A stretch of 64,000 nucleotides of DNA from Minisyncoccota bacterium (GTDB taxonomy: Bacteria; Patescibacteriota; Minisyncoccia; Phycocordibacterales; UBA1006), in NCBI GenBank assembly GCA_021209525.1, contig JAJOIF010000009.1, positions 22,285 to 86,284 of the forward strand, written 5' to 3'. Every line of letters begins with the position of its first letter. The first letter of the stretch is position 1. The notes beneath the pieces were generated by a model. That model did no database searches. It was not told where the DNA came from and saw only the letters and a list, made by a program, of their open reading frames with translations. Made by a program: the position numbers and the translations under genes. Positions 2,017 through 59,793 of this stretch are shown here, piece by piece.

Positions 2017-3066
2017 TTATTTTTGTGCTGCAAAAAATGTAAAGACATTTTGATTTGTCAGGAGCGACGCCACATATGCGCGCACATTGTTTGGATCAAT
2101 ATCTTTCATGTCTTTGTATTGCTCAAGAATTTTTTGCGCATCATTTTCAACTTGTTCATCAGTTGGATGTAATTTTTCCTGGTGAGCAATTTTTTCAATA
2201 ATGAGATTCATAAGCGCTCTCTTGGTTGCAGATTCGTGCCAATCTTTTTTCATATCGTCGCGTGTTTTTTCAATTGCCTTGAGGTACTCATCAAATGCCA
2301 TGCCCGTCATTGCAATATCATATTCCATTTGCGCCATCATTTTTTGTAATTCAAAATCAACGAGCACATCAGGAACATCTGCTTGCGTTGCTTCAATTAA
2401 TGCATCAGCAATAGCGAGCTGTGTTTTCTCATATGCTTTGTTTTCTTTTTCTGCTTTGAGATTTTCAGTGAGCTTGTGAGTAAAATCTGCAACATCAGTG
2501 AAATCTCCCAATGTTTTCACATATTCGTCATCAAGGTCTTTGATTTCTGCATCTTTTGCTTCTTTGGGATCAACTCCGGCTGTAATAGCGTCATTTTGAG
2601 CACGCATTTTTTGAATCTGAAGAATAGCATCTGCGACTTCGGTTTCAGTTACTTCGGTATCTGTTGGTTTCGCCATTTCAGCGCGCGCAATACTCTTGTA
2701 GTCAGGAAGGTTAATATCCGGAACCACCGCTGTAGTAATCGTAAATCCAAGAGGATTCCCTTTGGCAAGTTTTGTAATATTCACCATAGGGCGACCAAGT
2801 GGGTCGAGTTTGTGTTCCTCAAGCAAGAGCGGATATGCATCAGCAACTGCCATATGTGCCATTTCATCTAAAATACGCATATCGCCAAGAGTTTTTTCAA
2901 GAATTTCGCGAGGTGCTTGGCCTTTACGGAACCCTTTGAGTTCTACGTCTTTACCTAATTGATCAAGTGCGCGGTCATAATACGGCTCAAAATCCGCATA
3001 GCTTATTTCTGCAATAATATCGACAGTGCTTTTTTCTCCTTTTTTGATTTCGCTCGTTATTTTCAT
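2017..3066 (-). CDS. tig: Trigger factor with N-terminal ribosome-binding and C-terminal chaperone domains; the PPIase domain is absent
   Basis: MKITSEIKKGEK...GFRKGQAPREILEK matches the trigger-factor signature motif GFRxGxxP. The C-terminal region aligns with the trigger-factor C-domain. At 349 aa there is no room for the FKBP domain. I chose the start at the internal ATG (3066) rather than the track's 3243. Confidence 0.8.
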   Translation of the reverse strand: MKITSEIKKGEKSTVDIIAEISYADFEPYYDRALDQLGKDVELKGFRKGQAPREILEKTLGDMRILDEMAHMAVADAYPLLLEEHKLDPLGRPMVNITKLAKGNPLGFTITTAVVPDINLPDYKSIARAEMAKPTDTEVTETEVADAILQIQKMRAQNDAITAGVDPKEAKDAEIKDLDDEYVKTLGDFTDVADFTHKLTENLKAEKENKAYEKTQLAIADALIEATQADVPDVLVDFELQKMMAQMEYDIAMTGMAFDEYLKAIEKTRDDMKKDWHESATKRALMNLIIEKIAHQEKLHPTDEQVENDAQKILEQYKDMKDIDPNNVRAYVASLLTNQNVFTFFAAQK

Positions 3067-3367
3067 ATATGATGATGTGGTTATGTAACAATACAGGGCA
3101 AGTGTATACGGTATGAGGCTTTTTGTCAAAAAAAACACCATTGGACAAGGCGTGGATAAGTTGTTATAGTAAAAAAGTAAGAATCTAGACAGATTGACCT
3201 TATTGACCGCACACCCTTCTTGCACGTTATTCATTTTAGACATTGACTCTTTATATCTAATTATATGCTACGCATACATTCATATCGACACACCTTAGGC
3301 CACGCACACCTACTCGTGAGAGCCGAGGCGTAGTCTCTATAGTTACTATAAAGAGGCACACAACACT

Positions 3368-4885
3368 ATGGGAGCATTCCTTGTGATCATTATCGCACTG
3401 GTAAGCATTGCTGCCGGATATGTGCTCCGCTATGTTGTTGCGCTTTCTCAAAAGAAATCTCTAGAAATAGAGGTGCGTCAAATCACTCTTGATGCACGGA
3501 CAGAAGCACAACATATCGTTGACAAAGCCGAAGAAAAAGCAGAGCAACTTACCCAAGAACTCAAAAAACGCGAAGAAAACAAAGAGCGCGATTGGAAAGA
3601 AAAAGAAAACCGTCTCGCCAAAAAAGAAGAAACACTTGATGCTAAACAAGTACATCTTGATGAGGAAATGAAAGCCATCAAGGAAAAAATAGAGGAAATC
3701 AACGCCCTCAAAGAAGGCATCCTCGCTACAAAAAACAACCTTGAAAAAGAAATAGAAACCATTGCACGCATGAGCGCCGAAGACGCGCGCGCGATGCTCC
3801 TTGAGAATATAGAGAAAAAATATCAAGAAGATCTCTTGGTGCGTATGCAAAAAATGGAGCATGTAAATCGCGAAGAGCTCGAACGACGATCTCGCGACAT
3901 TATGATTAGCGCCATGCAACGCTATGCACATAGCGTAGTAAATGATGTCACCACAACATCAGTGACGATTCCTTCCGAAGACGCCAAAGGCAAGATTATC
4001 GGAAAAGAGGGGCGCAATATTCGTACTTTTGAACGCGTTTCTGGCACTGAACTCATTGTAGATGACACCCCTGACACTGTTGTCATTGCATCATTTGACC
4101 CCATTCGACGCCAAATAGCTCGTGTCGCCCTTGAAAACCTTATCCTTGATGGACGCATTCAGCCTGCAAAAATAGAAGAATTCATTGAAAAAGCACGCGC
4201 TGAAATTAATACCATCATTAAACAAAAAGGAGAGCAAGCCGTATACGAAGTAGGCATTCTCAATTTTGATCCACGCATTACTGCTATTTTGGGACGACTC
4301 TATTTCAGAACGAGTTATGGACAAAATGTATTGCAACACAGTGTTGAAATGGCACATATTGCAGGGATGCTCGCTGAGCAATTAGGAGCAGATCCTTATG
4401 TTGCCAAAGCTGGCGCCCTCGTACACGATATCGGCAAAGCCCTTGACCATGAAGTACAAGGCACTCATGTGCAAATCGGTATGCGTATCTTGCGCAAGTT
4501 TGGAGCAGATGAGCGTGTGGTGACCGCCATGAAGTCACACCATGACGAATACCCTCATGAGTCGCTTGAATCTATTATTGTCACCATTGCAGACGCTATT
4601 TCTGGGTCTCGCCCAGGAGCACGGCGTGATAGCGTTGAGAATTATATCAAGCGTCTCCAAGAACTAGAGACCGTAGCGCTCGGATTCACTGGTGTAGAGA
4701 AAGCATTTGCACTTTCTGCAGGGCGCGAAGTACGTGTCTTTGTATATCCAGAACAAATCAATGACCTCCAAGCAAAACAACTGGCACGATCTATTGCAGA
4801 ACAAATAGAAAAAGACCTTAAGTATCCAGGAGAAATTAAGATCACTCTGATACGCGAAAATAGAATTGTTGAATTTGCAAGATAG
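3368..4885 (+). CDS. rny: Ribonuclease Y
   Basis: The protein has an N-terminal TM helix and a coiled coil. The KH domain reads GKIIGKEGRNIRTFERVSG and the HD domain reads HSVEMAHIAGMLAEQLGADPYVAKAGALVHDIGKA. Confidence 0.9.
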   Translation: MGAFLVIIIALVSIAAGYVLRYVVALSQKKSLEIEVRQITLDARTEAQHIVDKAEEKAEQLTQELKKREENKERDWKEKENRLAKKEETLDAKQVHLDEEMKAIKEKIEEINALKEGILATKNNLEKEIETIARMSAEDARAMLLENIEKKYQEDLLVRMQKMEHVNREELERRSRDIMISAMQRYAHSVVNDVTTTSVTIPSEDAKGKIIGKEGRNIRTFERVSGTELIVDDTPDTVVIASFDPIRRQIARVALENLILDGRIQPAKIEEFIEKARAEINTIIKQKGEQAVYEVGILNFDPRITAILGRLYFRTSYGQNVLQHSVEMAHIAGMLAEQLGADPYVAKAGALVHDIGKALDHEVQGTHVQIGMRILRKFGADERVVTAMKSHHDEYPHESLESIIVTIADAISGSRPGARRDSVENYIKRLQELETVALGFTGVEKAFALSAGREVRVFVYPEQINDLQAKQLARSIAEQIEKDLKYPGEIKITLIRENRIVEFAR

Positions 4886-4893
4886 CACCAAAA

Positions 4894-4926
4894 TAAAAAC
4901 ACCTCATTTGAGGTGTTTTTATTTTG
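4894..4926. terminator. Bidirectional terminator (AAAACACCTCA..TGAGGTGTTTTT) between rny and hup
   Basis: A hairpin with A/T runs on both sides lies between the convergent genes rny and hup. Confidence 0.6.
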
Positions 4927-4939
4927 GTGTTGTTGTGTA

Positions 4940-5215
4940 CTATGCAGCAACTTTGTCTTTCAAACCTTTTCCGGCTTTGAATTTTGGTACGCGCTTTGCA
5001 GCAACTTTTACCATTTCTCCTGTTTTTGGATTGCGTGCTTCGCGAGCTGCTTGGATTTTTCCAGAGAATTTTCCAAAACCTGCAATATCTACATCTGTTC
5101 CTTTTGCCATTGCATCAGCCATAGCATCAAAAATCATTTGCACTACGCGTTCTGCTTGTGCGCGTGTTCCTTGTAATTCTTCTTGTACCATTTGTGCAAG
5201 ATCTGCTTTCTTCAT
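4940..5215 (-). CDS. hup: DNA-binding protein HU
   Basis: MKKADLAQMVQEELQGTRAQAERVVQMIFDAMADAMAKGTDVDIAGFGKFSGKIQAAREARNPKTGEMVKVAAKRVPKFKAGKGLKDKV is a canonical HU fold. The start is the internal ATG at 5215. Confidence 0.9.
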   Translation of the reverse strand: MKKADLAQMVQEELQGTRAQAERVVQMIFDAMADAMAKGTDVDIAGFGKFSGKIQAAREARNPKTGEMVKVAAKRVPKFKAGKGLKDKVAA

Positions 5216-5411
5216 AAAATGTATTTCTTTTAGAAATTGTGTATAAAATCGACTACATACACTATGTATATGTGTAAATCTATTATATATCAAGGTTTTT
5301 TGAAAAGAAAACATTGACTTTTTTTATATCTGTGTTATTTGTATATAACAAAAAATTCTCGCCGATCACATGGCGAGAATTTTTTGATGTATTTTTAAAA
5401 TACGATAGGTG

Positions 5412-7040
5412 TTATTGATTATTACGAACGAGTGTTTGACCTCCATCAGAAGGAGTTGTTGGCGTATTTTCAAGAATAACACGATGTGCATATCCTTGTT
5501 TTACGCTTGGCCCATAGGTAAAGTCCGCAATTCCTACATAGAAACTCTTGCCGGCAATAGGTTTTCCGTTATGGTCAACCAGAGACGACTTATTTGCTTC
5601 ATATGCTTTGAGAATTTCACCAGAAGGAACCAAGGCCACCTCTTTGGTTTTGTCATGTGAAAGGGCAAAGATAACATCAATTCCCTTTTCTTGTGCTTTT
5701 TGTTGCAAGGCTTGAATATATTCAGCATCTTGAATCATTTCGTCACTCCACATAATGAGCGCTTTTTTCATTCCTTCAGCAGCAGGAGCTTCACGATCAA
5801 GCATTTGTATTGCTGAAGTAACAATGCGTTCTCTATTGTCGCCCTTATTCTCAATTTTCTTGATAAAATTATTGAATGATTTCAAATTCTTAATTTCAAT
5901 TCCAGCATCGGCATTGTGAGAAAATGATGCCACGTGCTTCATTTTTTCAAATACATCAGATCGTTCTCCGGCGTAGGTGCTGAGTCCATCAATCAACTCT
6001 GCATAATCTACAGACTGACTATTATCAAGACCTAATGTGAATGCATCGTATTGATCAAGGATACGGAACATTTCGAGGTTTGTAGTTCTTTCGTATAAAG
6101 AAGTATTTGTTTCTATAGATGGCTCAAGCACTTCGTAGTCTTCTTGAGGAACGTCTTGTTGATCTACGCCGCGAGTCACATCAAGCCTAAACTCAACAAT
6201 ACGTGCTTTTTGCAAGAGAAGCGCAAATTCTGCTGGGTTATTTTTTTGAAGGCTTGCAATTTCTGCTTCGGTAAAATTCTCGCCTGTTGCAGGATTAATA
6301 AACTCTGCAACATGTGTCACACCCCCTTCGGGCATTTCAAAAGTAATTTTTTTGTTTTTGATTTGCTCAATCACATCAGCAGAGAGTCCTGCTTGGGCAA
6401 AATCAAAATTTTGACGCGCATCATCAAAAATCTTGAATGCCGCATTCAAACGCGCTTCGGTGAGTGCCTCATTACCACGCTCACCCCATGCATTCGTTGG
6501 GCGTTCATCGCTCGATCCAAAGAGTTTCCAATCTGCATCGAGAATGTTTTGAGCTTCTGCAGCAGAAATTGAAGCGAGGAATTCTTGAGCGCTTTCATAA
6601 ATCTTTTGCGCTGATTCTGGAGAAATATCAGCCTTGTCTGTTTTGAATGTTTGTTCCACATCAATAGAGAAACCTTCTATTTTTTTATCTACTTTGGTTT
6701 TTGTAATAATCTCTGGTTCGTATTGAGAAAAATCAGAAAAGTACACCGTGCTCTTGTCTGCAGTTTTTTGAGTCGCCACTCGCTCTTGTTCAGTTTTAAA
6801 ATTTTTCTGAAAGTCTTCATGTGCTTTATTATCAAACGCATCTGCTTGTGTTCCTGCAGAACCTGCCATAGCACTAAATGCATGGAGCAACCCAAAAGCC
6901 GCTGCAAGCGCTCGCTTTTTCATAACAGAAAATTTTGACTCGACGAGCTCTGTGTCCCGAGGCTCTTGATCAAGAGCAAGGTCTTCGTGCTGCTGTTCTA
7001 TTTTTTTATTTACCAAAGACTCAATTTTTTTCATAGACAT
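5412..7040 (-). CDS. Hypothetical protein, probably secreted; no domain recognised
   Basis: This is a long ORF. The internal Met at 6923 (MKKRALAAAFGLLHAFSAMAG) gives a signal-peptide-like N-terminus and may be the true start. Confidence 0.5.
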   Translation of the reverse strand: MSMKKIESLVNKKIEQQHEDLALDQEPRDTELVESKFSVMKKRALAAAFGLLHAFSAMAGSAGTQADAFDNKAHEDFQKNFKTEQERVATQKTADKSTVYFSDFSQYEPEIITKTKVDKKIEGFSIDVEQTFKTDKADISPESAQKIYESAQEFLASISAAEAQNILDADWKLFGSSDERPTNAWGERGNEALTEARLNAAFKIFDDARQNFDFAQAGLSADVIEQIKNKKITFEMPEGGVTHVAEFINPATGENFTEAEIASLQKNNPAEFALLLQKARIVEFRLDVTRGVDQQDVPQEDYEVLEPSIETNTSLYERTTNLEMFRILDQYDAFTLGLDNSQSVDYAELIDGLSTYAGERSDVFEKMKHVASFSHNADAGIEIKNLKSFNNFIKKIENKGDNRERIVTSAIQMLDREAPAAEGMKKALIMWSDEMIQDAEYIQALQQKAQEKGIDVIFALSHDKTKEVALVPSGEILKAYEANKSSLVDHNGKPIAGKSFYVGIADFTYGPSVKQGYAHRVILENTPTTPSDGGQTLVRNNQ

Positions 7041-7256
7041 GTTATGTGTACTTACTGTGATTAATATACCAAGTATAGCATAGAGAACTTTTTGCTTACT
7101 TTTGTAAATATAATTATACCATTTTATTTTAAAAAAGTAAAGTGTTCGTCTTGAATTCTACCCTGAATGTAAACTCTCATACACCTCCGCAGGGGTTCTC
7201 TGCTCAAATAACTTTCTTGAAGCGTTTTATGCGTTAAACTTTTCGTCGCACATAAA

Positions 7257-7318
7257 CAAAATCTCTAAAAGCGCTGCTTTTAGGAATAATATTTGCAGTG
7301 TGCGGGTGGGGAGAATCG
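7257..7318. repeat. Direct-repeat copy 1: a duplicate of the tRNA-Gly(TCC) 3' end (18 nt, 7301-7318) plus its 44-nt trailer and hairpin
   Basis: It is near-identical to 7469-7530. It also matches the trailer of tRNA-Gly(GCC) at 10034-10080. Confidence 0.6.
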
Positions 7319-7379
7319 GTCACTCTCGCGGGTCTCGCTACGCGCTTTGCGCTTGCTGCGACCTCGCTCCCTTGACCTC

Positions 7380-7468
7380 CACGCGGGCCCTTCCTCGACT
7401 CTTTCGCATTCGCTTCAGAGTCTGCGGGCTTCGCGGGCCCTTGGTTCGATTCTTCCACCGCACGCAAA
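7380..7468 (+). ncRNA. Candidate structured RNA element (GC-rich, about 90 nt), copy 1; second copy at 9948-10033
   Basis: The element is about 65% GC in an AT-rich genome. Two helices covary between the copies: GGGCCC/GGGCCC versus GGACCC/GGGTCC, and GACTC/GAGTC versus GGCTC/GAGCC. Its 3' end carries a T-arm-like GGTTCGATTC. The strand assignment is tentative. Confidence 0.4.
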
Positions 7469-7475
7469 TAAAATT

Positions 7476-7496
7476 CCCAAAAGCGCTGCTTTTAGG
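7476..7496. terminator. Palindromic hairpin (CCCAAAAGC-GCT-GCTTTTAGG) shared by tRNA-Gly(TCC) and the upstream GC-rich element
   Basis: An A-tract, GC core and T-tract give a bidirectional terminator architecture. The longer 10-bp version at 10041-10063 is conserved. Confidence 0.45.
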
Positions 7497-7512
7497 AATA
7501 ATATTTGCAGTG

Positions 7513-7583
7513 TGCGGGTGGGGAGAATCGAACTCCCCTCTTCTGCTTGGAAGGCAGACATTCTACCAATAAACTACACCCGC
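7513..7583 (-). tRNA. tRNA-Gly (anticodon TCC)
   Basis: The reverse complement reads GCGGGTG-TA-GTTTATTGGTAGAAT-G-TCTGC-CTTCCAA-GCAGA-AGAG-GGGAG-TTCGATT-CTCCC-CACCCGC-A. It forms a cloverleaf with anticodon TCC. Confidence 0.85.
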
Positions 7584-7654
7584 ATGGGAGGACTTGGTTA
7601 TAGTATCAAATAATATTTTTTTGAGCAAGCCCTCGCTCTTCTCTCTACCAACTA

Positions 7655-8125
7655 CTATGCGTGCATCAATGAATCCAAATCAGCGAGAATAATATCAGCA
7701 TGCGTTGCAGGATCAACTTTTGGATACACTTTGATAATGACACCTTCTGGATTTATCAAAAAACTTGATCGTATAATACCGAGAAATGATTTACCAAACA
7801 TTGATTTTTCTTTAAGCGCACCAAATGCGGTGAGTGTTGTGCGATCAGTATCTGAAAGCAAGGTAAATGGTAATTGGTATTTTTCAGCAAACTTTTTATG
7901 GCTCTTTGGAGAGTCGGCACTTATTCCAATAACTTTGACTTGTATTTTTTCAAATTCATCATAGATATCACGCAATATACATGCTTGCTGTGTACATCCA
8001 GGCGTATCGTCTTTTGGATAAAAATAGATGAGCACATACTGGCCCCTATACTCAGAGAGAGTGTGTGTTTTTTCATCTTGATCAAGAAGGGTGAATTCTG
8101 GTGCCGGTGAGTTAATTTCAAGCAT
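7655..8125 (-). CDS. bcp: Peroxiredoxin Bcp/PrxQ (thiol peroxidase)
   Basis: FTLLDQDEKTHTLSEYRGQYVLIYFYPKDDTPGCTQQAC is the Bcp active-site signature. Confidence 0.85.
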   Translation of the reverse strand: MLEINSPAPEFTLLDQDEKTHTLSEYRGQYVLIYFYPKDDTPGCTQQACILRDIYDEFEKIQVKVIGISADSPKSHKKFAEKYQLPFTLLSDTDRTTLTAFGALKEKSMFGKSFLGIIRSSFLINPEGVIIKVYPKVDPATHADIILADLDSLMHA

Positions 8126-8139
8126 ATAATGTATACAAA

Positions 8140-15876: not shown

Positions 15877-16821
15877 TTATTTTTTCTTGCCGTGGAATTT
15901 TTCGTGAACTTCACGCAGACGCTTGTCTGTAATATGAGTATAAATTTGTGTTGTTGCAATACTTGCATGACCGAGCATTTGCTGCACACTACGGAGGTCA
16001 GCACCATTTTCAAGGAGTCCTGTTGCAAAACTGTGTCGAATAACGTGTGGAGTCACTTTTTTGGATACACCGGCTTTGATGGCGAGTTGTTTCAAAATAC
16101 GCTCAATAGATCGCGGAGAGAGACGCAAACTCTTTTGATCTTCAAGATCCTTGGTAACGCGCGGAGACACTTGCACAAAGAGTGCTTCTTCCATGTCATC
16201 TCTTTTTTCAAGGTATGCGCGCAGGGCATCTCGCGCATCTGAAGAAATAAACACTACGCGAATTTTTTCGCCCTTTCCACGAACAGACAATTCTGATTTT
16301 GAAATATCAATATCACGATTGAGTCCAGCAAGCTCTGATACACGCAATCCCGTTGAAAAGAGAAGTTCGAGAATGGCAGTGTCTCTGAGGCTTTTGAGGT
16401 CATCCCCGCGCACCGCTTGAAACATGCGGTCGAGCTCTTGGGGTGATATGAGATCGAGACTGCGCTCACCCACCTTGGCGAGTTCAATGCGATCCGGCGC
16501 GAGCGAAGCAATGTCGCGTTTCATCATATATTTCAAAAAACTACGGAGCGCAATGAGGTAATAGTTTTGTGTTTTCTTTTTCAGCGTGCTTGTATGTTGT
16601 CCTTTGGTGCGCGCACCCATTTGCCTGTTCAGATGAAGACGAAATTCGCGCACGAGATCATCGGTAATCTCTTGGGGTTCGGTAATATTGGCAAAATCTA
16701 AAAAACGATAGAGGTACCGCTGATAATTATCAACAGTCTTGAGACTGCGCCCTTTTTCTATTTCAACATACTCGAGAAATTGATGCACCAAACTCTGTAT
16801 GCGCGTCTTGTTCTGTGTCAT
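15877..16821 (-). CDS. Tyrosine site-specific recombinase, XerC/XerD family
   Basis: The C-terminus HVIRHSFATGLLENGADLRSVQQMLGHASIATTQIYTH carries the catalytic R-H-R-Y box II. Confidence 0.85.
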   Translation of the reverse strand: MTQNKTRIQSLVHQFLEYVEIEKGRSLKTVDNYQRYLYRFLDFANITEPQEITDDLVREFRLHLNRQMGARTKGQHTSTLKKKTQNYYLIALRSFLKYMMKRDIASLAPDRIELAKVGERSLDLISPQELDRMFQAVRGDDLKSLRDTAILELLFSTGLRVSELAGLNRDIDISKSELSVRGKGEKIRVVFISSDARDALRAYLEKRDDMEEALFVQVSPRVTKDLEDQKSLRLSPRSIERILKQLAIKAGVSKKVTPHVIRHSFATGLLENGADLRSVQQMLGHASIATTQIYTHITDKRLREVHEKFHGKKK

Positions 16822-24828: not shown

Positions 24829-26325
24829 ATGCAGAAGACGCATATATTTTCTTTGACTGTTGGTGTTATTATAGGAATTATACTTGGATACATAACGCCC
24901 TTTGCGCTTTTTTGGGTGCTGTGCTCTATAAGTCTAGGTGTTATTATAGGAATTATCGCGTACACGTATCCGCCGCACACCCACGCGCGAACCTATCTCT
25001 ACATACTCAGTATATGCTGTATAGGATGCGGGGTGGGAGCGATGAGGAGTCATGTCTTTCATCAAACTCTTGACCCTGAACTTGATGCAAGGGCCGGCAC
25101 GCGTGTGCACCTCATTGGACATATTGATGAAATAGAAGAACGAGCGCATAATCAACGAACAATTTTGTATGCACACACACTCATTGATGGAGAAGACCGT
25201 ATTCCCATTCATGAAAAAATACATGTCAGTTTTGATTATGGCACGACTCTTGATTTTGGTGATGAAGCATCTGTACAAGGGGTACTCAAAAAACCAGAAG
25301 GGTTTATTACAGATACGGGGAGATTATTTGCGTATGATCAATTTCTCGCAAAAGATACCATATATGCGACCATTTCTTTTGCAGAAGTAAATCGAGAAAG
25401 TGTTGGACGACGAACCGTACGGAGTAGGCTCATACTTCTCAAGAAAAATATGCGCCTGCGCATACTCCGCATCTTTCCAGAAAAAGAAGGGTCTTTCTTG
25501 GTAGGAATTATTCTCGGCGAAAAACATTTTATTCACTCGGATGTGCAAACATCATTTCGAAAATCTGGGCTCATACATATATTGGTGCTCTCTGGGTTTC
25601 ATATAACCATGATATCACTTGCCATACTATGGTGTATGCGCCTCATATTTCCTCTACGCCTAGCGCTCGCAATTAATGGCATCATTATTGTGCTTTTTAT
25701 CCTTATGGTGGGTGCAAGCGCAACCATCATACGCGCAGGAGGTATGGCAATGATTGCTCTCATTGCACGCATATTAGAACGCGAACATATAGGTATGCGC
25801 GGTCTCCTTATGGTGGGGACAGGTATGATGATACATAATCCGCGCATCCTCCTTTGGGATGTATCATTTCAGCTTTCTTTTTTAGCAACGCTCGGATTAA
25901 TTATTTACTCGCCATTTTTTGCAAAAAAATTACAAGGCATTCCTCAGTTTTTTAATATACGCGAAACAATGAGCGCAACGCTGTCTGCTCAAATCTTTGT
26001 CACACCGCTCATTATGTACCAAATGGGTGAGATATCTCTCATATCAATTATCGCTAATGTGCTCATTGTACCACTCACTGCATTTTCTATGATTTTTGGA
26101 AGTATTGCAGGTATTACTGGCGAAATACTCCCCATATTACAACCTTTCATACGATTACCTGCATATGCAAGCGCGCATCTTCAAATTACAGGGGCAGAAA
26201 TTATGGGATCACTTCCTTTTGCATCTATTTATGTGCCCCGTTTTTCATTCTTTTTCCTTGTTATAATCTATATACCTATCCTGTGGATAAGTTGGTATGT
26301 GTATAAAAAACAGAGCACTCCATAA
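24829..26325 (+). CDS. comEC: ComEC/Rec2-family DNA-uptake channel protein (no metallo-beta-lactamase domain)
   Basis: FLVGIILGEKHFIHSDVQTSFRKSGLIHILVLSGFHITMISL is the ComEC competence-domain signature. Confidence 0.8.
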   Translation: MQKTHIFSLTVGVIIGIILGYITPFALFWVLCSISLGVIIGIIAYTYPPHTHARTYLYILSICCIGCGVGAMRSHVFHQTLDPELDARAGTRVHLIGHIDEIEERAHNQRTILYAHTLIDGEDRIPIHEKIHVSFDYGTTLDFGDEASVQGVLKKPEGFITDTGRLFAYDQFLAKDTIYATISFAEVNRESVGRRTVRSRLILLKKNMRLRILRIFPEKEGSFLVGIILGEKHFIHSDVQTSFRKSGLIHILVLSGFHITMISLAILWCMRLIFPLRLALAINGIIIVLFILMVGASATIIRAGGMAMIALIARILEREHIGMRGLLMVGTGMMIHNPRILLWDVSFQLSFLATLGLIIYSPFFAKKLQGIPQFFNIRETMSATLSAQIFVTPLIMYQMGEISLISIIANVLIVPLTAFSMIFGSIAGITGEILPILQPFIRLPAYASAHLQITGAEIMGSLPFASIYVPRFSFFFLVIIYIPILWISWYVYKKQSTP

Positions 26326-45566: not shown

Positions 45567-47927
45567 ATGTTCTATATATTATATAATTTTTTCATGGACA
45601 CACACCCATCTTCTTTAGAAAAAAAACCTATTCTGAGCATTGAGCCTTTTGGGAACCATGTACAACTGGTCGCAAGCACTATTCTTGAGTCATTGCAGCC
45701 CACACCTTCAGCGCGCACCAAAGAAGATATTATCAAGGTTGTTGAATTTATATTAAATGGCAAAGAAGAACAAGCTTCTCGGATTCTTAGTCGCATGGTA
45801 TCTATAGGAAAGATATCATCTGAACATTTTGTACGCATTCTTGAAAATGCGAGCGATTACTATAATTCCAACAAAGAAGAGCTTCTTGCAGCACCGCGCA
45901 CACAAACACCAGAACCTGTAGCACTTTCCTCTGAACCTGCTACAGAGACCACCCTTCATAATGGCATCCCTGCTATTGAAATCAAAAATCCAGCAGAAAA
46001 TGAGGGAGGCGAACCCATTGCTCAACACACAAAAACAAATACAGCAGAAGTAATTGCTGACCAGCCTGCGCTGGATACAGAGATTATTACTGACACAGAA
46101 CCGCTTGAACAAATAGAGGATTCTATTGAAACACCCGAAGCAAGTGCGATTGAGGCAAAAATGAGTACTAAAAAGAAAACTCTCTACGCTATTGCCAAGC
46201 GCGAGTATACACAAAAATACATTGCACCTCGATCAAAAGATATATCTCTCAGTCCTGAAATTCAAAAATATTTTGAAAAGAAACAAAAAGAAATGGACAT
46301 TTTTTATAACACCAAAAAAAACCGTAATCAGATCATTGAAGGGCTTATTAAGGCTGTGCGCGAGAATACTCCTCAAAAAACCTCTCTTCATAGAAATATA
46401 GATGTCGTGAGCGAATTCAAAGATGCTCATATGTATAAGAAATTACGTGATATTATCACCACAGAAGGTATTGATGTCATCCTTATTCACGGCAAAGAAA
46501 ATACACGCGGCGCAACAGGTGACTCTCTTTCATTTGATGATGACACAGACACCAAAGCAGCACTCCATATATTACATCTCGTGAATCCGCAATACAAAGA
46601 AGGCGCACATACACATCTCGTACCCAAAGGATACAAACTTTCCCCAGAAGATCCTGAATTTGCAGGTAAAAATATTCTCAGTATCGATGTGGGGGGAACT
46701 GATTATGGTATTACCTTGACCGCCGGGAAAAAAGGTGCTGAGCATATTATCCTTGATCATCACCAAGAACATGCACAAGCCGGTCAGCAATCTGCCGCAA
46801 GCCTTATGCTTACCCTCATTCGCGAAACTGGACTCATAGAAAACCTGAGCCCAGAACAGCGTGCCGAAGCAGAAAATATTGGCGCTTTCGTAAATACTGT
46901 TGACGACCTCACCTATCCTTTCAATGCTCAAAAAGATGGCGCAACATGGCCGTATACACTCTATGGACTTGAGCCATACACCCCAAAAGAAATTCTTTTC
47001 TCTCTTGTAGGGAAAAGTGCGCCTGAGAAATTTAACAAACCACTTGATCCACAAGTACTCGCTCGCATTCCTATTGGCAAGAAAGTTGATGGGCGCATTA
47101 TCTTTGCAAAAAACGCAGAAGAAAGGGCCGCCTTTGCTCAAGACCCTGAATTCAGAGCACAAAGTGAACAAATTGTTACAGACCTTGCTGCGCGAAACCA
47201 TGAACTCCACACACTCTTAAAAGAAAAAGTAAAAGATCCTCAACACAAAGAACGCGTCAATGCGCTGCGTAAAAAGATAAGCACCCTTGCAGGAATATTA
47301 CCTGCGGAATACATCACCCTCGGCAATCAAGCAGAGCGAGCTCGCAGAGACCTCGCGGCATCACTCTATCGCATACGTAATCTCGCACAAGTGCAAAAAG
47401 AAAACGGACTTGCAACACATACACCTGATTTGGGTAAGGTGCTCGTTAATAAATATAAAGGCGGGGAAGCTCTCCCTCTTGGGTTTAATGCTGTCCGTGC
47501 TGCTGGATATGATAGTTATCTCAATTTCTTTACCAAAGAAAAAATAGATGGCGATACAAAAACATATGATACGGTAGGTTTCTTTGTTTCATCAGATCAC
47601 CTCAGCAAGTATTCTGTTGAAGCGATATATCCGCGCATTAAAGAATTATTTCCTGAAGCAAAAATGATTCGTGGAAAAATGATCATGTATACAGCGCCTG
47701 AAGGGCAAGAAATGGATCCAGAAAAGCTTTTGCAAGCGCTTGAACTCATTAAACAAGATGAAGCACTTGCAGAGGACACTGCGCCAGAAACACAAATCAC
47801 ACCAGAAGCATTGCCAGAAATCATCTTCTACAAAGGAGAACAGGTACGCGTACTCTCTCGAGATATATACGGACGCATCTCTGTTGAAAAAAGCGATGGT
47901 ACACAGCTACGCATTATACCTTCATAG
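45567..47927 (+). CDS. Large hypothetical protein with a central DHH-like phosphoesterase-type region
   Basis: GIDVILIHGKENTRGATGDSLSFDDDTD ... ILSIDVGGTDYG ... EHIILDHHQEH resembles DHH motifs I to III of NrnA. The N-terminal part is acidic. Confidence 0.45.
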   Translation: MFYILYNFFMDTHPSSLEKKPILSIEPFGNHVQLVASTILESLQPTPSARTKEDIIKVVEFILNGKEEQASRILSRMVSIGKISSEHFVRILENASDYYNSNKEELLAAPRTQTPEPVALSSEPATETTLHNGIPAIEIKNPAENEGGEPIAQHTKTNTAEVIADQPALDTEIITDTEPLEQIEDSIETPEASAIEAKMSTKKKTLYAIAKREYTQKYIAPRSKDISLSPEIQKYFEKKQKEMDIFYNTKKNRNQIIEGLIKAVRENTPQKTSLHRNIDVVSEFKDAHMYKKLRDIITTEGIDVILIHGKENTRGATGDSLSFDDDTDTKAALHILHLVNPQYKEGAHTHLVPKGYKLSPEDPEFAGKNILSIDVGGTDYGITLTAGKKGAEHIILDHHQEHAQAGQQSAASLMLTLIRETGLIENLSPEQRAEAENIGAFVNTVDDLTYPFNAQKDGATWPYTLYGLEPYTPKEILFSLVGKSAPEKFNKPLDPQVLARIPIGKKVDGRIIFAKNAEERAAFAQDPEFRAQSEQIVTDLAARNHELHTLLKEKVKDPQHKERVNALRKKISTLAGILPAEYITLGNQAERARRDLAASLYRIRNLAQVQKENGLATHTPDLGKVLVNKYKGGEALPLGFNAVRAAGYDSYLNFFTKEKIDGDTKTYDTVGFFVSSDHLSKYSVEAIYPRIKELFPEAKMIRGKMIMYTAPEGQEMDPEKLLQALELIKQDEALAEDTAPETQITPEALPEIIFYKGEQVRVLSRDIYGRISVEKSDGTQLRIIPS

Positions 47928-48923: not shown

Positions 48924-51900
48924 ATGAAACAACCCGACACCTTACGCGATATTGATTCTTATCCAGATGTTCCCGCACTTTCCCTTGACGCAATGCTCGA
49001 TGCGCTTGAACGCAAAGAGGTTGTCTATGTGCAACGTATCACCCAAGATAATACTTTAGAAAGTGGCTGGAAGGTGGTAGCCGCAACAACAGGAGGGGTT
49101 GTGACGCTTGAAAAAATAGCAGGGAGCAATATAGGGGAACGCATAGAAGTGCGACCTATTGATGTCACCCTTGAACCTGTTCCTCCTCATGAAGTCACCC
49201 TTCATGGCAAAATGCTTGATGGTCTTGATTTAGGGCAAGGTTTTCGTATTTCTGCCGTAGAAACAGGCGCAGACGAAGCGTCTACATATGTGCATATTGA
49301 TGTACCTACGTCTTCACAAGCAATATTTGGTAATACAGACAGTGTGCGTATTTCCGTAAGTAGTCTTGGGCTTATGACAGATCCTGCCACATCAGAACTT
49401 GATGTGAATATGCTTTTAAGCACACTCAATATTATTGAATCAAAACCTATTACCGGAACACCTGATGTGGAAACACCGAGCGATACACTTCTTGCAGACA
49501 CAGAAACGCATATGTCACCCATAAAATCAACCACCCAGGCACTCAGAAGTGTTTATGAACACCTCGTAGAATCAAATAATGAGCATGCGTTTTGGGATGC
49601 TCATGATCTCATACCCGCTGACATGCAAGAGAGTTTCAAAGACCTCAAAAAGACTATTTACCAGGAACTTAGCGAGGCATATTATCATGCACAAGATACG
49701 AACACAAACCCTGAATTAATACAGCGTGTTAATGATTTATTGTCTTTGGTGCAAAAAAAAGAACAACCCGCTCAGGAAGTTTTTGTTACTACAGAAGACG
49801 GCACTCTTGAAGGTGGATGGAAAATGGCGCCTATTATTGCGGGTAGTGACTATGTGCTCGTATACAAAAAAGACCCCGTAACAGGAGAACTCCTTAAAAA
49901 ACAAATTTTGCGCGAAAAATTTTATGCAGATAATCCCCATATTTCAGAAGAAGCAGAAGAAATAGCAACCCCAGAAATACCTACAAAAGAAGACGCCGAG
50001 CCAGAAGCCCCAGCAGAAAAAAATGAGCAGCCAGCAAATCAGTTCGAACAAAGTATTTGGCTCAAGCGACAAAAACAAAGCACCCTTGAAGCATATATCA
50101 AAGCATATGAAGATCACTATGGCGCAAAAAGTGATAGTTCGAAATTCTTGAAGGAAATGCTGAGCGGTACAGGTTTTGTAAAACGCGAAGATACTGACTT
50201 GTCTCTTGAAAATGCTCCGGAAGGGTCAACAGGGCACGCACTCCTTGCGGCAAAGAGAATGTACGAGCAAGCACGCGAAGATTATCTCAATAATCGCAAG
50301 CGTCAAATTGAACTTGCTGCAACAAGACACTTAGAACGATTACAAAACGATCCTGAGTACACATCAAACCCTCAAGGAATGACTCTCAGTAAAGAAAATC
50401 TTTACGCATATACTGAGGCGCTTACTCAAAAATATCGCGGACTTGAAGCGGTGCGCAGTCAAGAAACCGCACTTCATACTGCTCAAGAAAAGGCATTTGA
50501 GAGCAAGACAAAGCGCATTGTTGCGGGTATTGCACAAAAATGGAACAAGCTCCCTTGGTATGTAAAAGTAACTCTTTCATCTGCTGCCATTGGTGCTGGT
50601 ACTGCCGCTGCCATTGGTGCTATTGCAGGAACGGGAGGTATGGCGCTTGGTGGCGGTCTTGTGATGGGACGCAGCTTGTTGAGCGGTGCTGCTGGTGTAT
50701 TAGGTAATCGTATCGGAGGAGCCACCGGCGCACTTCTTGGGTCATCTGGCGCTCGAGCTCTTTTAGGAGGACTTGGTGGGGTTGTTGGAGGTTTTGTTGG
50801 ACGAGGTGTAGTTGCTGGAACAGAAATGGCCTCAAATACATTTAATCGCTTGAGGGGAAAAGATCCTCAAAGAATGCGCGCAAAAATTCAAGACGCTTAT
50901 AATGAGGGTGTTTTATCTTATAGAGAATACACCGAAGCTCTTGCAGATATTGAACAAACTCAAAAGAAATGGGAAACAGGAAAAACCGCCGGTATGGTTG
51001 CTGGGGCAATACTTGGTGGTGCAGCAACACAGTTTTCATTTGAAAATAATGCGGAGCCAATTACAACAACACCTGAACCAGAGCCCGCACCACAACCCGA
51101 ACCAATCCCAGCAATACCTGAACCAGTTGTGGAAGCACCTGCCTGGGAAAATGTTTCTGACCTTGCCAAAGTACAAAAAGGCGACGGAGTCACGAATATT
51201 TTGGCACGACAAATCAATGCTGACCCAGAGCTCTTGCGCGCAGCGGAACAAGAACTCGGCATGAACTATAATGACAATAGAGGAGTATTTCTTGCCAAAC
51301 TTGCTCAAAAATTTGGCTACATCAATGAATCAGGAACAGCCGATGTGCGCTTGGTTATGAATCCAGAAAATGCATATGAGCTCTCTACAGAAAATAGTAC
51401 TCTCGTCATGCGCGAATGGGAAAATGGTACACTCGACAGAGTGCATGGCACGAACACAGCCTTCCAAGGATCTATCAATGAGGTGCAATCATCTCGCGAG
51501 TATGTATACGGTCAAACAGGAGCAAATACTACATCGTCAAATTGGGGTGCTCAGTCTGCAAATAATTACGTAGAGGGTCCAACTTCAGGAAGTATTGGTA
51601 CCTTGTCAAATAATGACGGATTCGTAAAAGGACCAACATCGGGAAGTATAGGAAATTTCTCTACCGAAGGACTTGTGGCGGGGCCCACTTCAGGAAGTAT
51701 TGGAGCAAACATGACTTTTGAAAACGGGCCTGATCTAAAAACAAATCCTGCAGATATATTGAATACAGCTAATGAGCAGAGTGCGGACACATATACTGCA
51801 AAAGCTATCGAGGCGCGCGACCAGTACTTTACTGAGAAAAACAAAGGCTGGGTACTCGAAGATGGGCGACGCATTATTTATGAACGCGACTTAGCGCCAC

Positions 51901-52493
51901 TCTCTGCAAAAGAAGTATTTATGCATATGAGCGGCTATGAACAAGGTACTTTTGCAATCAAAGACAAGAAATTTGAAGCATTGATTCCATTTATGAGCAG
52001 TATATATCACCAAGTAGATGCGCAAGGAGTTGATTGGAAATCATGGCCAGACACACTCACCTTTGATGAGGCAACACTTATTGCCGCAGGAAAGCCATTT
52101 GAAAGCACTCCTGAAACACCTCAATTCTTTGCACAAGGCCCTGTATTTGAAAATTACAATTATGACAAGGTATTTGCATTAGTGAATGGTAGTGATCGCT
52201 TTACTCCAGATCAGAGCACAGCATCCCTTGCATACTTGAATCGCGTATTTGGGCCAGAACGATTTGCACAATTCATGACTGTTCCGTACGGACAACTTGA
52301 AGGAATTATTACGAGCGCTCCTTTTGCAAAAAGCCAGCAAACATTATTCAAAGAAGTGATCGAGAAAATTATTGCAAGTAGCGGCACGGTGGCAAGTGCT
52401 GAAAAACCTATTGGTGCACTCTTGAATACATCGCTCGCGCAAATGGGATCAACCTATAGCACTCAAGACATCTTGGTGTATAATACACAGTAA
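48924..52493 (+). CDS. Giant hypothetical protein (1189 aa) with an internal module duplication, a central Gly/Ala-zipper hydrophobic segment and three GPTSGSIG repeats
   Basis: Modules TQDNTLESGWKVV and TEDGTLEGGWKMA repeat. The hydrophobic segment reads AAIGAGTAAAIGAIAGTGGMALGGGLVMG...GGLGGVVGGFVG. The repeats are in VEGPTSGSIGT / VKGPTSGSIGN / VAGPTSGSIGA. A TGtTATAAT extended -10 lies at 48882-48890. Confidence 0.6.
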   Translation: MKQPDTLRDIDSYPDVPALSLDAMLDALERKEVVYVQRITQDNTLESGWKVVAATTGGVVTLEKIAGSNIGERIEVRPIDVTLEPVPPHEVTLHGKMLDGLDLGQGFRISAVETGADEASTYVHIDVPTSSQAIFGNTDSVRISVSSLGLMTDPATSELDVNMLLSTLNIIESKPITGTPDVETPSDTLLADTETHMSPIKSTTQALRSVYEHLVESNNEHAFWDAHDLIPADMQESFKDLKKTIYQELSEAYYHAQDTNTNPELIQRVNDLLSLVQKKEQPAQEVFVTTEDGTLEGGWKMAPIIAGSDYVLVYKKDPVTGELLKKQILREKFYADNPHISEEAEEIATPEIPTKEDAEPEAPAEKNEQPANQFEQSIWLKRQKQSTLEAYIKAYEDHYGAKSDSSKFLKEMLSGTGFVKREDTDLSLENAPEGSTGHALLAAKRMYEQAREDYLNNRKRQIELAATRHLERLQNDPEYTSNPQGMTLSKENLYAYTEALTQKYRGLEAVRSQETALHTAQEKAFESKTKRIVAGIAQKWNKLPWYVKVTLSSAAIGAGTAAAIGAIAGTGGMALGGGLVMGRSLLSGAAGVLGNRIGGATGALLGSSGARALLGGLGGVVGGFVGRGVVAGTEMASNTFNRLRGKDPQRMRAKIQDAYNEGVLSYREYTEALADIEQTQKKWETGKTAGMVAGAILGGAATQFSFENNAEPITTTPEPEPAPQPEPIPAIPEPVVEAPAWENVSDLAKVQKGDGVTNILARQINADPELLRAAEQELGMNYNDNRGVFLAKLAQKFGYINESGTADVRLVMNPENAYELSTENSTLVMREWENGTLDRVHGTNTAFQGSINEVQSSREYVYGQTGANTTSSNWGAQSANNYVEGPTSGSIGTLSNNDGFVKGPTSGSIGNFSTEGLVAGPTSGSIGANMTFENGPDLKTNPADILNTANEQSADTYTAKAIEARDQYFTEKNKGWVLEDGRRIIYERDLAPLSAKEVFMHMSGYEQGTFAIKDKKFEALIPFMSSIYHQVDAQGVDWKSWPDTLTFDEATLIAAGKPFESTPETPQFFAQGPVFENYNYDKVFALVNGSDRFTPDQSTASLAYLNRVFGPERFAQFMTVPYGQLEGIITSAPFAKSQQTLFKEVIEKIIASSGTVASAEKPIGALLNTSLAQMGSTYSTQDILVYNTQ

Positions 52494-57572: not shown

Positions 57573-57612
57573 TTTCTTGCACCATTATTGGCATTCACGT
57601 ACTATATATATT

Positions 57613-59793
57613 ATGACTACTCATATTCTTCGATTATTTTCTTTCTGTATTATCGGCACACTCGTACTGCTCGCAAGTATCGCTCCTCAACAAAGTCGCG
57701 CCCAGCTTGTTGTTTCAGATCCTGGAGCAACAGGTGTTTTAGTGCTTGATCAAGTACAACAAGCAAATCAAACATTTACAAGTATTTATGATAATCTCAA
57801 AGAATTTGCTCTTGATGCCCTTGCTTTTAATCTCGCAAGCATGCTTTCTCAGCAGCTCACTCAACAAATTATCAACTGGGCAAATACAGGATTTGACGGT
57901 AATCCATTTTATGTAAATGACTTGGGTCTTTATTTTCAAGACATTTCACGCAATCAATTTAATTCTGTTATTCAAAATGCGCAGTTAAATCAAAACCCTT
58001 TTATTCGATCTATTGTGCGTGGACAATTCCGCGGTATTGATTCAGGGGCAGGTGCACCTACTCTTGCTGAACAATTTGGGGTAAGTGTTGATGATATATT
58101 TGTTGACATTACTCCTTTTGGGTGGGATGCTTTGCAATCAATTCACAGACCACAAAATAATATTATTGCATCAACACTTGCTATTACCGGAGAACGCGCG
58201 GCGCGCGAAGTTGCCGAAAAAGAACTTGCAACACTTGATTTGATGGGTGCAAATTTTAGATCTGACACCGCATGTTTAGTGACTAATATTCAACGCCAAT
58301 ACCGCACCACTGAATTTATTGGCGAATCATTCACAGGAACAGGATCCTCTTTTCGTGCGCGGGATTTTAGAGAAGGACTCATCCTTGAAACAGCTGATGG
58401 GGGCACCGTCCTTGCAGAATGTTTAGTTTCAAACACGAATACACCGAGCAGTCTCATTCAACAACAAGTAGACCGCGCCCTCGCCGAACCGCTTGAGAGA
58501 ACCAAAATTCCTACAGAATTTCAGCAAATTATTGCGAGCTCATTCAGTAATCTGGTCAATACTTTTGTAAATCGCGGTATTCAGGCAGCAACTTCTCGTA
58601 TGTCTCCGGCGCAACCCTCATCAACACGAGGACCACTGAGTCCACTCGAGAATTTACTTAATGACATCAGCGCAGAAGAAGCACAAAATAATCAAGACGA
58701 CTGGTCAGGTTCATCATTTATTGTTATTGATCTCTTGGCAGAATTAGACGGCGTACCGCTTCTTGACCCAATAACAGGAGCGCCTACAGGACAATTTGTA
58801 CGCCCCGGAGCAATTACACTCGCCGAGCAAGAACTCGCACTGATTAATCAAATGCTCGAAGAGATAAACACCACCTTTGTTGCTTTACAGAGCCTTGATC
58901 GCTGTATTCCTGGTCCTGATTTTGGATGGGAATCACGCCTCCGCAACTCACTTCAAAACAAAGCACGCATGCGTCGAGCAAGTAATAGTAATGCCAATAG
59001 AAATCAGGCAGCTGTTGCTCAGGTTGAATTTGCCGTAGAAATGCTTATTCCTGTTATACAAAGAGAAATGCGCGGATCTGCAACAGAATCCACTTTTGTA
59101 TTTGGAACAACTATTCCAAGCGCGGACATATTTATGCAGGAAATTGACCAAACAGCTAATGTGCGCAATCTGAACACACGACTTGAAACGGAACGAGGTC
59201 GTGTCAGCGAAACCCTGGTTGCGCTGAGGACTATGCGTCAAAAATATACAGACCCAAGCACTACCGAGGCCGAGAAATCAAATATTCGTTATGGTTTTAC
59301 CCAACTGACAACAACACCATCCCCTCAAGCGGTTGCACAAAGACAAAACATGCTCGAAGGAATGCGTGCTATGCAGCAATCAATTGCAGAAAAACAGCTT
59401 AGGTGTGAAGCAGAGGTGGCACAAAAAGCGCAAAGCAATCCTGCTTGGGGCAGACTGTACCTCAATAGTATTAACAGCACTCAAAATGGAGATGAAAATG
59501 ACCAACTCTTCTGCCTTGCTCTTCCTATTCAAGACGCATACCAAGGATGGGAAACAAAAAGTGCTCTTGAGTTCTTGGCCGGTCCTTTTAGAGGTGTCAT
59601 GGTGAGTCGTCAATCAAATGGACAAATACAATCTTCTTTCCCGCTAGGGCGACATGTTCCTTCTTTCTTGGACAGTAGTATTGATTGTTCGAGCGATGGG
59701 GACGACTGCCAAGACGGAAGGTTGCGTCTTAGCTTGGATTGTAGCGAATTCTACAGATCAAGTCTCTCATCATATAAAAGTTTCGTAAATTAA
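57613..59793 (+). CDS. Hypothetical secreted protein (726 aa) in the T4SS-like cluster
   Basis: The signal peptide is MTTHILRLFSFCIIGTLVLLASIAPQQSRAQ. Confidence 0.5.
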   Translation: MTTHILRLFSFCIIGTLVLLASIAPQQSRAQLVVSDPGATGVLVLDQVQQANQTFTSIYDNLKEFALDALAFNLASMLSQQLTQQIINWANTGFDGNPFYVNDLGLYFQDISRNQFNSVIQNAQLNQNPFIRSIVRGQFRGIDSGAGAPTLAEQFGVSVDDIFVDITPFGWDALQSIHRPQNNIIASTLAITGERAAREVAEKELATLDLMGANFRSDTACLVTNIQRQYRTTEFIGESFTGTGSSFRARDFREGLILETADGGTVLAECLVSNTNTPSSLIQQQVDRALAEPLERTKIPTEFQQIIASSFSNLVNTFVNRGIQAATSRMSPAQPSSTRGPLSPLENLLNDISAEEAQNNQDDWSGSSFIVIDLLAELDGVPLLDPITGAPTGQFVRPGAITLAEQELALINQMLEEINTTFVALQSLDRCIPGPDFGWESRLRNSLQNKARMRRASNSNANRNQAAVAQVEFAVEMLIPVIQREMRGSATESTFVFGTTIPSADIFMQEIDQTANVRNLNTRLETERGRVSETLVALRTMRQKYTDPSTTEAEKSNIRYGFTQLTTTPSPQAVAQRQNMLEGMRAMQQSIAEKQLRCEAEVAQKAQSNPAWGRLYLNSINSTQNGDENDQLFCLALPIQDAYQGWETKSALEFLAGPFRGVMVSRQSNGQIQSSFPLGRHVPSFLDSSIDCSSDGDDCQDGRLRLSLDCSEFYRSSLSSYKSFVN

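Follow-up and report, generated by a model that had tools for sequence, protein, structure and literature searches.

The window, by which we mean the whole 64-kb stretch of DNA analysed, is part of a CPR/Patescibacteria chromosome from the Paceibacteria. Its genes are of a housekeeping character, including HU, RNase Y, trigger factor, the CCA-adding enzyme, PGK, RecJ and ribosomal proteins; a peroxiredoxin gene flanks the region of interest, its product being 100% identical to a protein of a Candidatus Pacebacteria MAG, and ComEC is encoded at 24829-26325. Within this setting a GC-rich element (61-62% GC) occurs as two 89-nt copies which share 80 of 89 bases (90%), each next to a minus-strand tRNA-Gly gene. 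A sequence-only reading had described two copies of about 90 nt beside tRNA-Gly genes, with the GC content put at roughly 65%, and the copies are real. The genes and signals of the region are as follows.

7380-7468: copy 1 of the element
7467-7511, minus strand: spacer and intrinsic terminator hairpin (7473-7499) for tRNA-Gly(TCC), a 12-bp stem followed by TTTATTTG
7512-7583, minus strand: tRNA-Gly(TCC) (ARAGORN; Rfam tRNA, 70.4 bits), the last 19 nt of which are repeat copy A
8374-8447, minus strand: tRNA-Pro(TGG) (ARAGORN and Rfam)
9946-10034: copy 2 of the element
10033-10077, minus strand: spacer and terminator hairpin (10039-10065) for tRNA-Gly(GCC) (terminator scoring)
10078-10149, minus strand: tRNA-Gly(GCC) (ARAGORN and Rfam)
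10160-10267: Arg-type spacer with a GGGGTTTTGC...GCAAAACCC hairpin, downstream of tRNA-Arg(TCG)
10268-10340, minus strand: tRNA-Arg(TCG) (ARAGORN and Rfam)

Both copies are enclosed in a 220-nt direct repeat (7366-7585 and 9932-10151) which consists of the element, a hairpin and the tRNA-Gly gene, and the 64 kb contain exactly two occurrences of the 20-mer CTTTCGCATTCGCTTCAGAG, where 0 would be expected. The distance from the end of a copy to its tRNA-Gly gene is 44 and 45 nt for the TCC and GCC genes, with a 12-bp hairpin in between, in agreement with the spacing of about 45 nt and the intervening hairpin reported earlier. These hairpins (7473-7499 and 10039-10065) carry T-rich tails on the minus strand and qualify as intrinsic terminators. 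The hairpin had also been called bidirectional, which is correct for copy 2, where it scores as a terminator on both strands, but not for copy 1, where it does so only on the tRNA-sense strand. Similarly, the association with tRNA genes is specific, but it is wider than the tRNA-Gly link first proposed, as the element is also found at tRNA-Arg and tRNA-Pro elsewhere.

Other sequences in the window lack an assignment in Pfam. The 542-aa ORF at 5412-7040, directly beside the element, has no Pfam domain and is split by an indel in the near-identical assembly L084, and the ORFs at 45567-47927, 48924-52493, 57577-59793 and 59891-62239 (738-1189 aa) gave no Pfam match. A 14-nt palindrome, GTTTCACGTGAAAC, occurs eight times in the window at up to two mismatches (0.27 expected), with seven copies within 8954-9611 and another at 10971-10984. 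Two of the clustered copies are in the 3' end of a UPF0102 gene and five in the AT-rich intergenic region of ~770 bp downstream of it; similar motifs are present beside the same genes in L085, L103, L104 and L105, and the palindrome is probably a conserved operator-like site. A replication origin in the AT-rich stretch 9160-9930 was considered and rejected, as DnaA boxes do not cluster there.

An inverted copy of the neighbouring tRNA

The 3' part of each copy had been described as a T-arm-like tail which does not fold as a tRNA. The tail, GGTTCGATTC...CCGCAC, is indeed present and is not a tRNA: on direct reading of the sequence, the CTTGG and CTTCC that flank TTCGATT are unable to pair as a T stem. 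What had been missed is its origin in the adjacent tRNA gene, the 3' end of which it repeats in inverted orientation; it is termed here the B arm (B' when the unit is read in the tRNA sense).

7443-7466, plus strand: B arm of copy 1, an inverted, imperfect copy of the tRNA-Gly(TCC) 3' end, GGTTCGATTCTTCCACCGCACGCA
10009-10032, plus strand: B arm of copy 2, repeating the tRNA-Gly(GCC) 3' end in inverted orientation, GGTTCAATTCTCCTGCCGCACGCA (match at +49; inverted repeat I2)

Beside tRNA-Gly(TCC) the tail reads GGTTCGATTCTTCCACCGCAC and the 3' end of that tRNA TTCGATTCTCCCCACCCGCAC, and beside tRNA-Gly(GCC) the corresponding sequences are GGTTCAATTCTCCTGCCGCAC and TTCAATTCTCCCTGCCCGCAC. Of the nine positions at which the copies differ, three (7448, 7456 and 7457) coincide exactly with those that differ between the two tRNAs; the arm of copy 1 matches tRNA-Gly(TCC) better than tRNA-Gly(GCC), and that of copy 2 tracks the G/A and CA/TG differences between the tRNAs. 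The inverted match of the copy 1 arm to tRNA-Gly(TCC) lies at +49 with one substitution and two deletions, and both B arms in the window share the same two single-base deletions relative to the tRNA. Judged by its sequence, the resemblance to a tRNA is that of a piece copied from the neighbouring tRNA gene and inverted.

Layout of the full unit

Copy 1 is the right-hand half of a larger unit (7300-7511, roughly 190 bp) which also contains a second, displaced copy of the tRNA 3' end, the C arm. Between the C and B arms are two core domains, with the following features (model R1 is introduced below).

7247-7299: older duplicate of the last 5 nt of the inverted arm (CGCAC) and of the terminator region, with a hairpin at 7264-7284, terminator-like on both strands
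7300-7318, minus strand: C arm, a perfect direct copy (19/19 at +194) of the last 19 nt of tRNA-Gly(TCC), displaced
7319-7379: core domain I, a GTCA...TGAC hairpin with an inner GCGC/GCGC stem (folding)
7380-7442: core domain II, a three-way junction (folding; model R1, 106 bits; covariation counts)
7385-7390 with 7435-7440: outer helix of domain II
7397-7402 with 7417-7422, plus an inner GC/GC pair: hairpin 1 of domain II
7424-7426 with 7432-7434: hairpin 2 of domain II
9932-10008: copy 2, which retains domain II alone, its outer helix formed by 9951-9956 and 10001-10006 (R1 match 9943-10018, 105.6 bits)

Read in the tRNA sense, the full unit consists of the tRNA (A), a terminator, the inverted arm B', a GC-rich two-domain core of 125 nt, C and a second terminator. 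The C arm spans the T-loop (CGATT) to the tRNA 3' end, where GAATCG joins the GTCAC of the core, and the exact repeat at tRNA-Gly(TCC) is 52 nt long, starting from tRNA position 54 with a spacing of 212. Copy 1 is full length, and copy 2 (9932-10077) is a relic which has lost the C arm and domain I, with AT-rich DNA in their place. The count of two copies is borne out, although a third, partial copy had been overlooked: a terminator with a tRNA 3' fragment at 7247-7318, which belongs to a 72-nt direct repeat (family D2: 7247-7318, 7459-7530 and 10025-10096). The 90 nt first noticed are not a unit of their own; they are the right part of an insertion of ~190 bp bounded by direct repeats of a tRNA 3' end.

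Fold and covariation

Two compensatory changes had been proposed between the copies and both are real. In the outer helix, pair 7387/7438 changes from G-C to A-T, and in the inner helix pair 7398/7421 changes from A-T to G-C; these account for four of the nine differences, and both pairs stay paired. The 89-nt fold alone has a stability which is ordinary for its composition (z -1.0 to -2.4). Taken as DNA or RNA, 7300-7466 folds into a closing stem of ~17 bp, formed by the C and B arms and interrupted by two bulges, around the two domains; the B arm of copy 1 pairs with the C arm to make this stem or, alternatively, with the 3' end of the tRNA itself.

A covariance model, R1 (17 pairs), was built from both window copies and one unit of the relative L101 (L101_a). 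Searched against related DNA, R1 recovered two copies in the more distant relative L090 (E = 2e-6 and 1e-4), and it had no other credible match in the 178 kb of Paceibacteria DNA searched, which took in the remainder of the window; all members lie beside tRNA genes. The L090 copies could not be aligned by MAFFT and were aligned by the covariance model. In the resulting set of five sequences from three lineages, an alignment fitted to the model, 98.6% of the aligned cells are paired. Both partners change in five pairs, of which four belong to the outer helix with its six pairs (GGGCCC/GGGCCC and GGACCC/GGGTCC, with GAATGC/GCATTC in L090). The covariation score was 0.40 against 0.17 in shuffled alignments (0/500 reached 0.40) and at most 0.12 when the pairing partners were slid. 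The fold is real and conserved.

The loop of hairpin 1 is less constant than the two window copies, where it is identical, had suggested. It reads TTCCGCATACGCTACA in L101, and L090 has a much shorter hairpin at this place (2 bp, against 6 bp in the window), while in a further L101 unit, L101_b, the loop of hairpin 1 is similar, TCGCATCCGCTC, but is closed by a stem of unrelated sequence, CCTTGTGT/ATACAAGG.

All of the helices are palindromes at the DNA level, hence the covariation identifies neither RNA nor the strand that folds. The claim of selection on RNA structure therefore stands as regards a conserved fold, but not as regards RNA. Such conservation and covariation would be equally expected of a functional RNA, and the element could be a free-standing structured ncRNA that is transcribed antisense to the tRNA, from the plus strand, and terminates at the shared hairpin, with its own function and a tail that mimics the tRNA 3' end. 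Apart from the three-way junction and its compensatory changes across genomes, this would fit the ~94% identity of the window and L101 elements despite CCA enzymes that are 75% identical, and the hairpin with a T-rich tail downstream of copy 2 on the plus strand. The count of G-T against A-C mismatches in the stems (4 vs 2 on the plus strand) also weakly favours that strand. However, there is no promoter-like site upstream, copy 1 being preceded by a terminator and GC-rich DNA, the stability is ordinary as described above and no Rfam family matches. The distribution of the element among relatives (below) weighs further against an independent ncRNA, which we consider unlikely.

Searches for known families

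ARAGORN, run for tRNA and tmRNA, returned only the four minus-strand tRNAs and nothing over either copy on either strand. Rfam searches of 7300-7470 and 9930-10035 on both strands gave no family at gathering thresholds or at permissive ones (E up to 10). Two of the identities suggested earlier are contradicted by these results: a tRNA-like ncRNA gene, as neither ARAGORN nor RF00005 found a cloverleaf and the tail has been copied, inverted, from the tRNA next to it, and a tmRNA- or SRP-like fragment, as no Rfam match or ARAGORN tmRNA match was obtained on either strand. Coding potential was likewise rejected, since the ORFs at the element are GC-driven, occur on both strands and are not conserved in homologues; no ORF of any length in the element survived the comparison. 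Group I introns of Patescibacteria tRNA genes interrupt the anticodon loop and are much longer than the element (PMC13011429), which rules them out here.

Scans of viral contigs, and BLAST against phage and plasmid collections, found no similar DNA. Loci reached through Bcp homologues (P0022, P0014 and P0009) were non-syntenic and held no tRNA, and a metagenome scan with the pattern TTCAGAGNCTGCGGGCTTCG gave three chance matches and no copies of the element. A scan of a genome collection with an 18-mer from the loop gave 79 loci, none of them the element; those outside the Bacteroidales were chance matches in genes, and ~35 in Bacteroidales MAGs belonged to an unrelated 33-nt repeat, CTTTCGCATTCGCTTCAGCGACTTCGTCGATTA. 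This repeat unit contains the 18-mer exactly and occurs singly or in tandem beside other short GC-rich repeat modules (e.g. L007 3660-3725 and 4841-4906; L016 1502-1640; L029 7327-7395). A Bacteroidales origin of the window, to which these matches might point, is contradicted by the protein search. The context is unrelated and the identity is probably a coincidence; the Bacteroidales repeat family itself looks uncharacterised.

Units at tRNA genes of related genomes

Syntenic loci of relatives were obtained through their flanking proteins, with about seven genomes sampled. In L101 (CCA enzyme 75% identical) three or more units follow one another in tandem, at repeats of the tRNA-Gly(TCC) type, up to the contig end, and over domain II, arm and terminator the first unit differs from the window at only 4 of 73 positions, three of them in the loop. 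L085 (CCA enzyme 73%) has a unit at tRNA-Gly(TCC) with the layout of the window but a different core, and the junction of GAATCG with GTCAC is common to the window, L085 and L101. L090 (CCA enzyme 55%) has units at tRNA-Gly(GCC) and at tRNA-Arg which share an identical 47-nt domain II; their inverted arms, TTCGATTCTCC... at Gly and TTCGAGTCCTGGCGGG... at Arg, each fit their own tRNA, and a perfect 19-nt direct copy C is also present at tRNA-Gly(GCC). Domain I has homologues in L101_b, where the inner stem is GCAC/GTGC, and in the tRNA-Arg unit of L090. In L105 there is a unit at tRNA-Gly(GCC) and, at tRNA-Arg, one of the Arg type whose orthologues are window 10160-10267 and the spacer in L085; units at tRNA-Pro were found in L088 and L090.

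The direct repeats that bound these units occupy a fixed part of the tRNA. At tRNA-Gly they are perfect over 52, 22 and 19 nt with spacings of 212, 192 and 192 (window, L085 and L090 respectively), start at the identical T-loop base in each locus and reach 0-33 nt past the gene. The repeats at tRNA-Arg and tRNA-Pro loci are 17-28 nt long. The orthologous tRNA-Arg spacers of L085 and L105 have perfect direct repeats of 17-21 nt, and at the same place in the window 10160-10175 is a degenerate direct copy of the tRNA-Arg(TCG) 3' end (match at +93). In all five loci read for it, the displaced copy C is followed by a terminator of its own. In L088 the displaced segment (605-720) is longer than usual and covers a tRNA-Pro 3' half from the variable loop onwards. 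This half stems from another tRNA-Pro allele, with an acceptor strand that would fail to pair with the 5' half of the resident gene.

Sites with and without a unit were both observed. L103 (CCA enzyme 68%) has no element at tRNA-Gly(TCC), tRNA-Gly(GCC), tRNA-Arg or tRNA-Pro, and given this absence at all four orthologous tRNAs the element is dispensable. Comparison of L104 (filled) with L103 (empty) shows a precise insert of 165 nt in L104, unrelated in sequence and bounded by a perfect 28-nt direct repeat which runs from the T-loop to 9 nt beyond the tRNA end; the downstream stretch shared by the two genomes matches closely, with mismatches in about 1 column in 12. The insert has the order A, terminator, B', core, C seen in the window. 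It represents a sibling element, alike in layout and without clear sequence homology to the window core.

The absence in L103 is difficult to reconcile with a free-standing ncRNA, as are the truncation of copy 2 and L101_a at different 5' points, the direct-repeat boundaries and the tandem arrays. The same comparison bears on a role in cis, in which the element would be part of the tRNA transcript and contribute to its termination, to 3' processing or to the quality control of precursors made by read-through. Its position would suit such a role, being always immediately downstream of a tRNA and on the tRNA transcript strand; furthermore, the terminator hairpin is best on that strand, either copy C or the tRNA 3' end is a possible pairing partner of B', and the 296-nt fold has a z of -7.8. 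Yet the element is located past a good terminator, the L103 tRNAs function without it although their 3' ends are identical, copy C is missing from copy 2, and one core serves different tRNAs while one tRNA has different cores in different genomes. We therefore regard a cis-acting role as very unlikely.

A third alternative needs neither mobility nor selection. Duplication around a palindromic terminator, combined with template switching at quasi-palindromes, could leave a neutral by-product that mimics compensation; in quasi-palindrome mutagenesis, templated correction can yield compensatory changes in palindromic DNA. The locus is built of direct and inverted copies of a tRNA 3' end centred on a palindrome and its inverted arm follows the local tRNA, both of which such a process would produce. 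It does not account for the core, which has no origin in the flanking DNA and is common to different tRNA loci and genomes at an identity far above that of the rest of the genome, nor for the foreign sequence held by the filled site in L104, and a purely neutral origin appears distinctly improbable.

Two observations concern the assemblies. Independently assembled contigs of L101 (1-20), L104 (1-35) and L105 (1-196) end inside tRNA-linked units, which appear to break metagenome assemblies. L084 (GCA_021209085.1) differs from window 2659-12168 by small indels only (14 gap openings, no BLAST mismatches). By their coordinates some of these lie within genes, e.g. 3604-3619 in the RNase Y ORF and 6927 in the 542-aa ORF, and the indels probably reflect mistakes of sequencing or assembly in either L084 or the window. 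A case for weak constraint built on L084 changes in the element (7388 delC and a 5-nt loss in the T-loop-like motif) was withdrawn as resting on probable assembly errors.

A probable miniature insertion element of tRNA 3' ends

On balance, the units are probably a family of miniature, folded insertion elements of tRNA 3' ends in Paceibacteria/Nomurabacteria (CPR), of which the 90-nt element is domain II with the inverted arm. This reading follows from the direct repeats at a fixed sublocation of the tRNA, the existence of filled and empty sites with complete absence in L103, the occurrence of different units at one tRNA across genomes and of one core at different tRNAs within a genome, and from tandem stacking, truncated relics and an identity far above that of the surrounding genome (4/73 differences between window and L101 with CCA enzymes 75% identical). 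An insertion element of this kind would enter by site-specific recombination with a crossover in the T-loop. The insert would supply a replacement tRNA 3' end and terminator, leaving the tRNA intact and the old 3' end displaced, as is the case with tRNA-targeted integrative elements. The element has nowhere near enough room for a recombinase gene and would therefore be moved in trans or be a decayed remnant. The B and C arms would form the ~17-bp stem which closes the two hairpin domains, a fold probably recognised by recombination proteins and possibly as single-stranded DNA.

No integrase lies in or next to the element, nor was a circular or excised form of it observed, and a Pfam scan of 47 window ORFs found no transposase, Rep or second integrase. 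The only recombinase among these ORFs is of the Xer type, a tyrosine recombinase at 15877-16821, 8 kb from the element and in conserved synteny.

Some findings fit an insertion element less well. The L090 units share a core and differ in their arms and terminators, where a simple cut-and-paste unit predicts otherwise, and this implies local matching of the arms, whether through conversion against the tRNA or through selection that keeps the closing stem paired. A classical double-stranded attP has no need of an inverted B arm, the displaced tRNA-Pro 3' half in L088 does not suit the resident 5' half, and copy 2 has no outer repeat, although the direct repeats expected of a tRNA-targeted element are otherwise present.

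Comparison with known elements

The T-loop to 3' end region is one of the usual attachment sublocations of integrative elements in tRNA genes (bioRxiv 10.1101/2020.11.02.365908), and CIMEs are integrase-less remnants of such elements which keep both attachment sites and are known to accrete in tandem (PMC5704250). The units described here resemble both in that the insert is bounded by direct repeats running from the tRNA T-loop to the 3' end, the element's own copy restores the tRNA, units are stacked in tandem at one tRNA (L101), and filled and empty sites exist (L104/L103). They differ in being ~100-1000x smaller (115-210 bp) with zero genes, and in having a conserved two-domain fold and an extra, inverted copy of the attachment sequence; unlike autonomous tRNA-targeted elements, they have no cognate integrase among the 47 window ORFs. 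The combination of 115-212 bp without genes, a conserved two-domain fold and the inverted copy B' is unusual.

For the inverted target copy, the nearest mechanistic parallel is by analogy CTXphi, an IMEX in which two opposed dif-like sites ~90 bp apart fold, within the single-stranded genome, into a 150-nt forked-hairpin attachment site (PMC3089051). Similar to CTXphi attP(+), the units have two inverted target-like sites ~90-125 nt apart and a predicted forked hairpin of ~150 nt whose imperfect stem would mimic the double-stranded target, and the predicted folds also include the unpaired bases characteristic of folded single-strand sites. If one strand were exchanged at the T-loop and the product then replicated, exactly the arrangement A, terminator, B', core, C would result. 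In contrast to CTXphi, the target is a tRNA 3' end and not dif, any involvement of Xer is a guess, the 'genome' between A and B' is a 45-nt terminator without phage or replication function, and the units are known from sequence only.

Taken further, the parallel would make these units gene-less mobile elements of ~190 nt in CPR bacteria which integrate as a folded single strand by means of a host tyrosine recombinase, a proposal that we hold to be rather doubtful. B' and C would then pair into a mimic of a tRNA gene's 3' end in its double-stranded form, a Xer-type or other host tyrosine recombinase would exchange one strand in the T-loop, and replication would fix the insertion.

The units also resemble MITEs, REP/BIME and Correia elements: they are short (115-212 bp), non-coding, GC-rich and hairpin-forming, with C/B terminal inverted repeats, several copies (2-3 per sampled locus) and truncated relics. 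Their terminal repeats, however, duplicate the local target gene where MITEs have fixed transposase sites, and the flanking repeats are 17-52 bp and variable as opposed to a short target duplication of fixed length. The units are also strictly tied to tRNA 3' ends and have no known autonomous partner. At E. coli tyrT, a tRNA 3'-end segment is likewise repeated downstream of the gene, within longer repeat units, as in the window element. The tyrT repeats are plain tandem direct repeats at one locus, and are not known to have an inverted arm, a conserved fold or any spread to other tRNAs.

Significance

If the insertion-element reading is correct, even the smallest, most reduced bacterial genomes still host tiny, selfish or semi-selfish elements which use tRNA genes as landing pads and repair the gene that they enter. 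Such elements would explain why GC-rich islands and partial copies of tRNAs recur next to tRNA genes in these genomes, and they could be mistaken for tRNA-like RNAs in annotation. The fold with its inverted target copy would offer a handle on hairpin-type single-strand integration outside Vibrio phages and integrons, and integration as a single strand, if true, would broaden the CTXphi/attC principle so that it covers tRNA genes and the smallest known integrating elements. The family may also serve as a marker for recent DNA exchange among uncultured CPR lineages.
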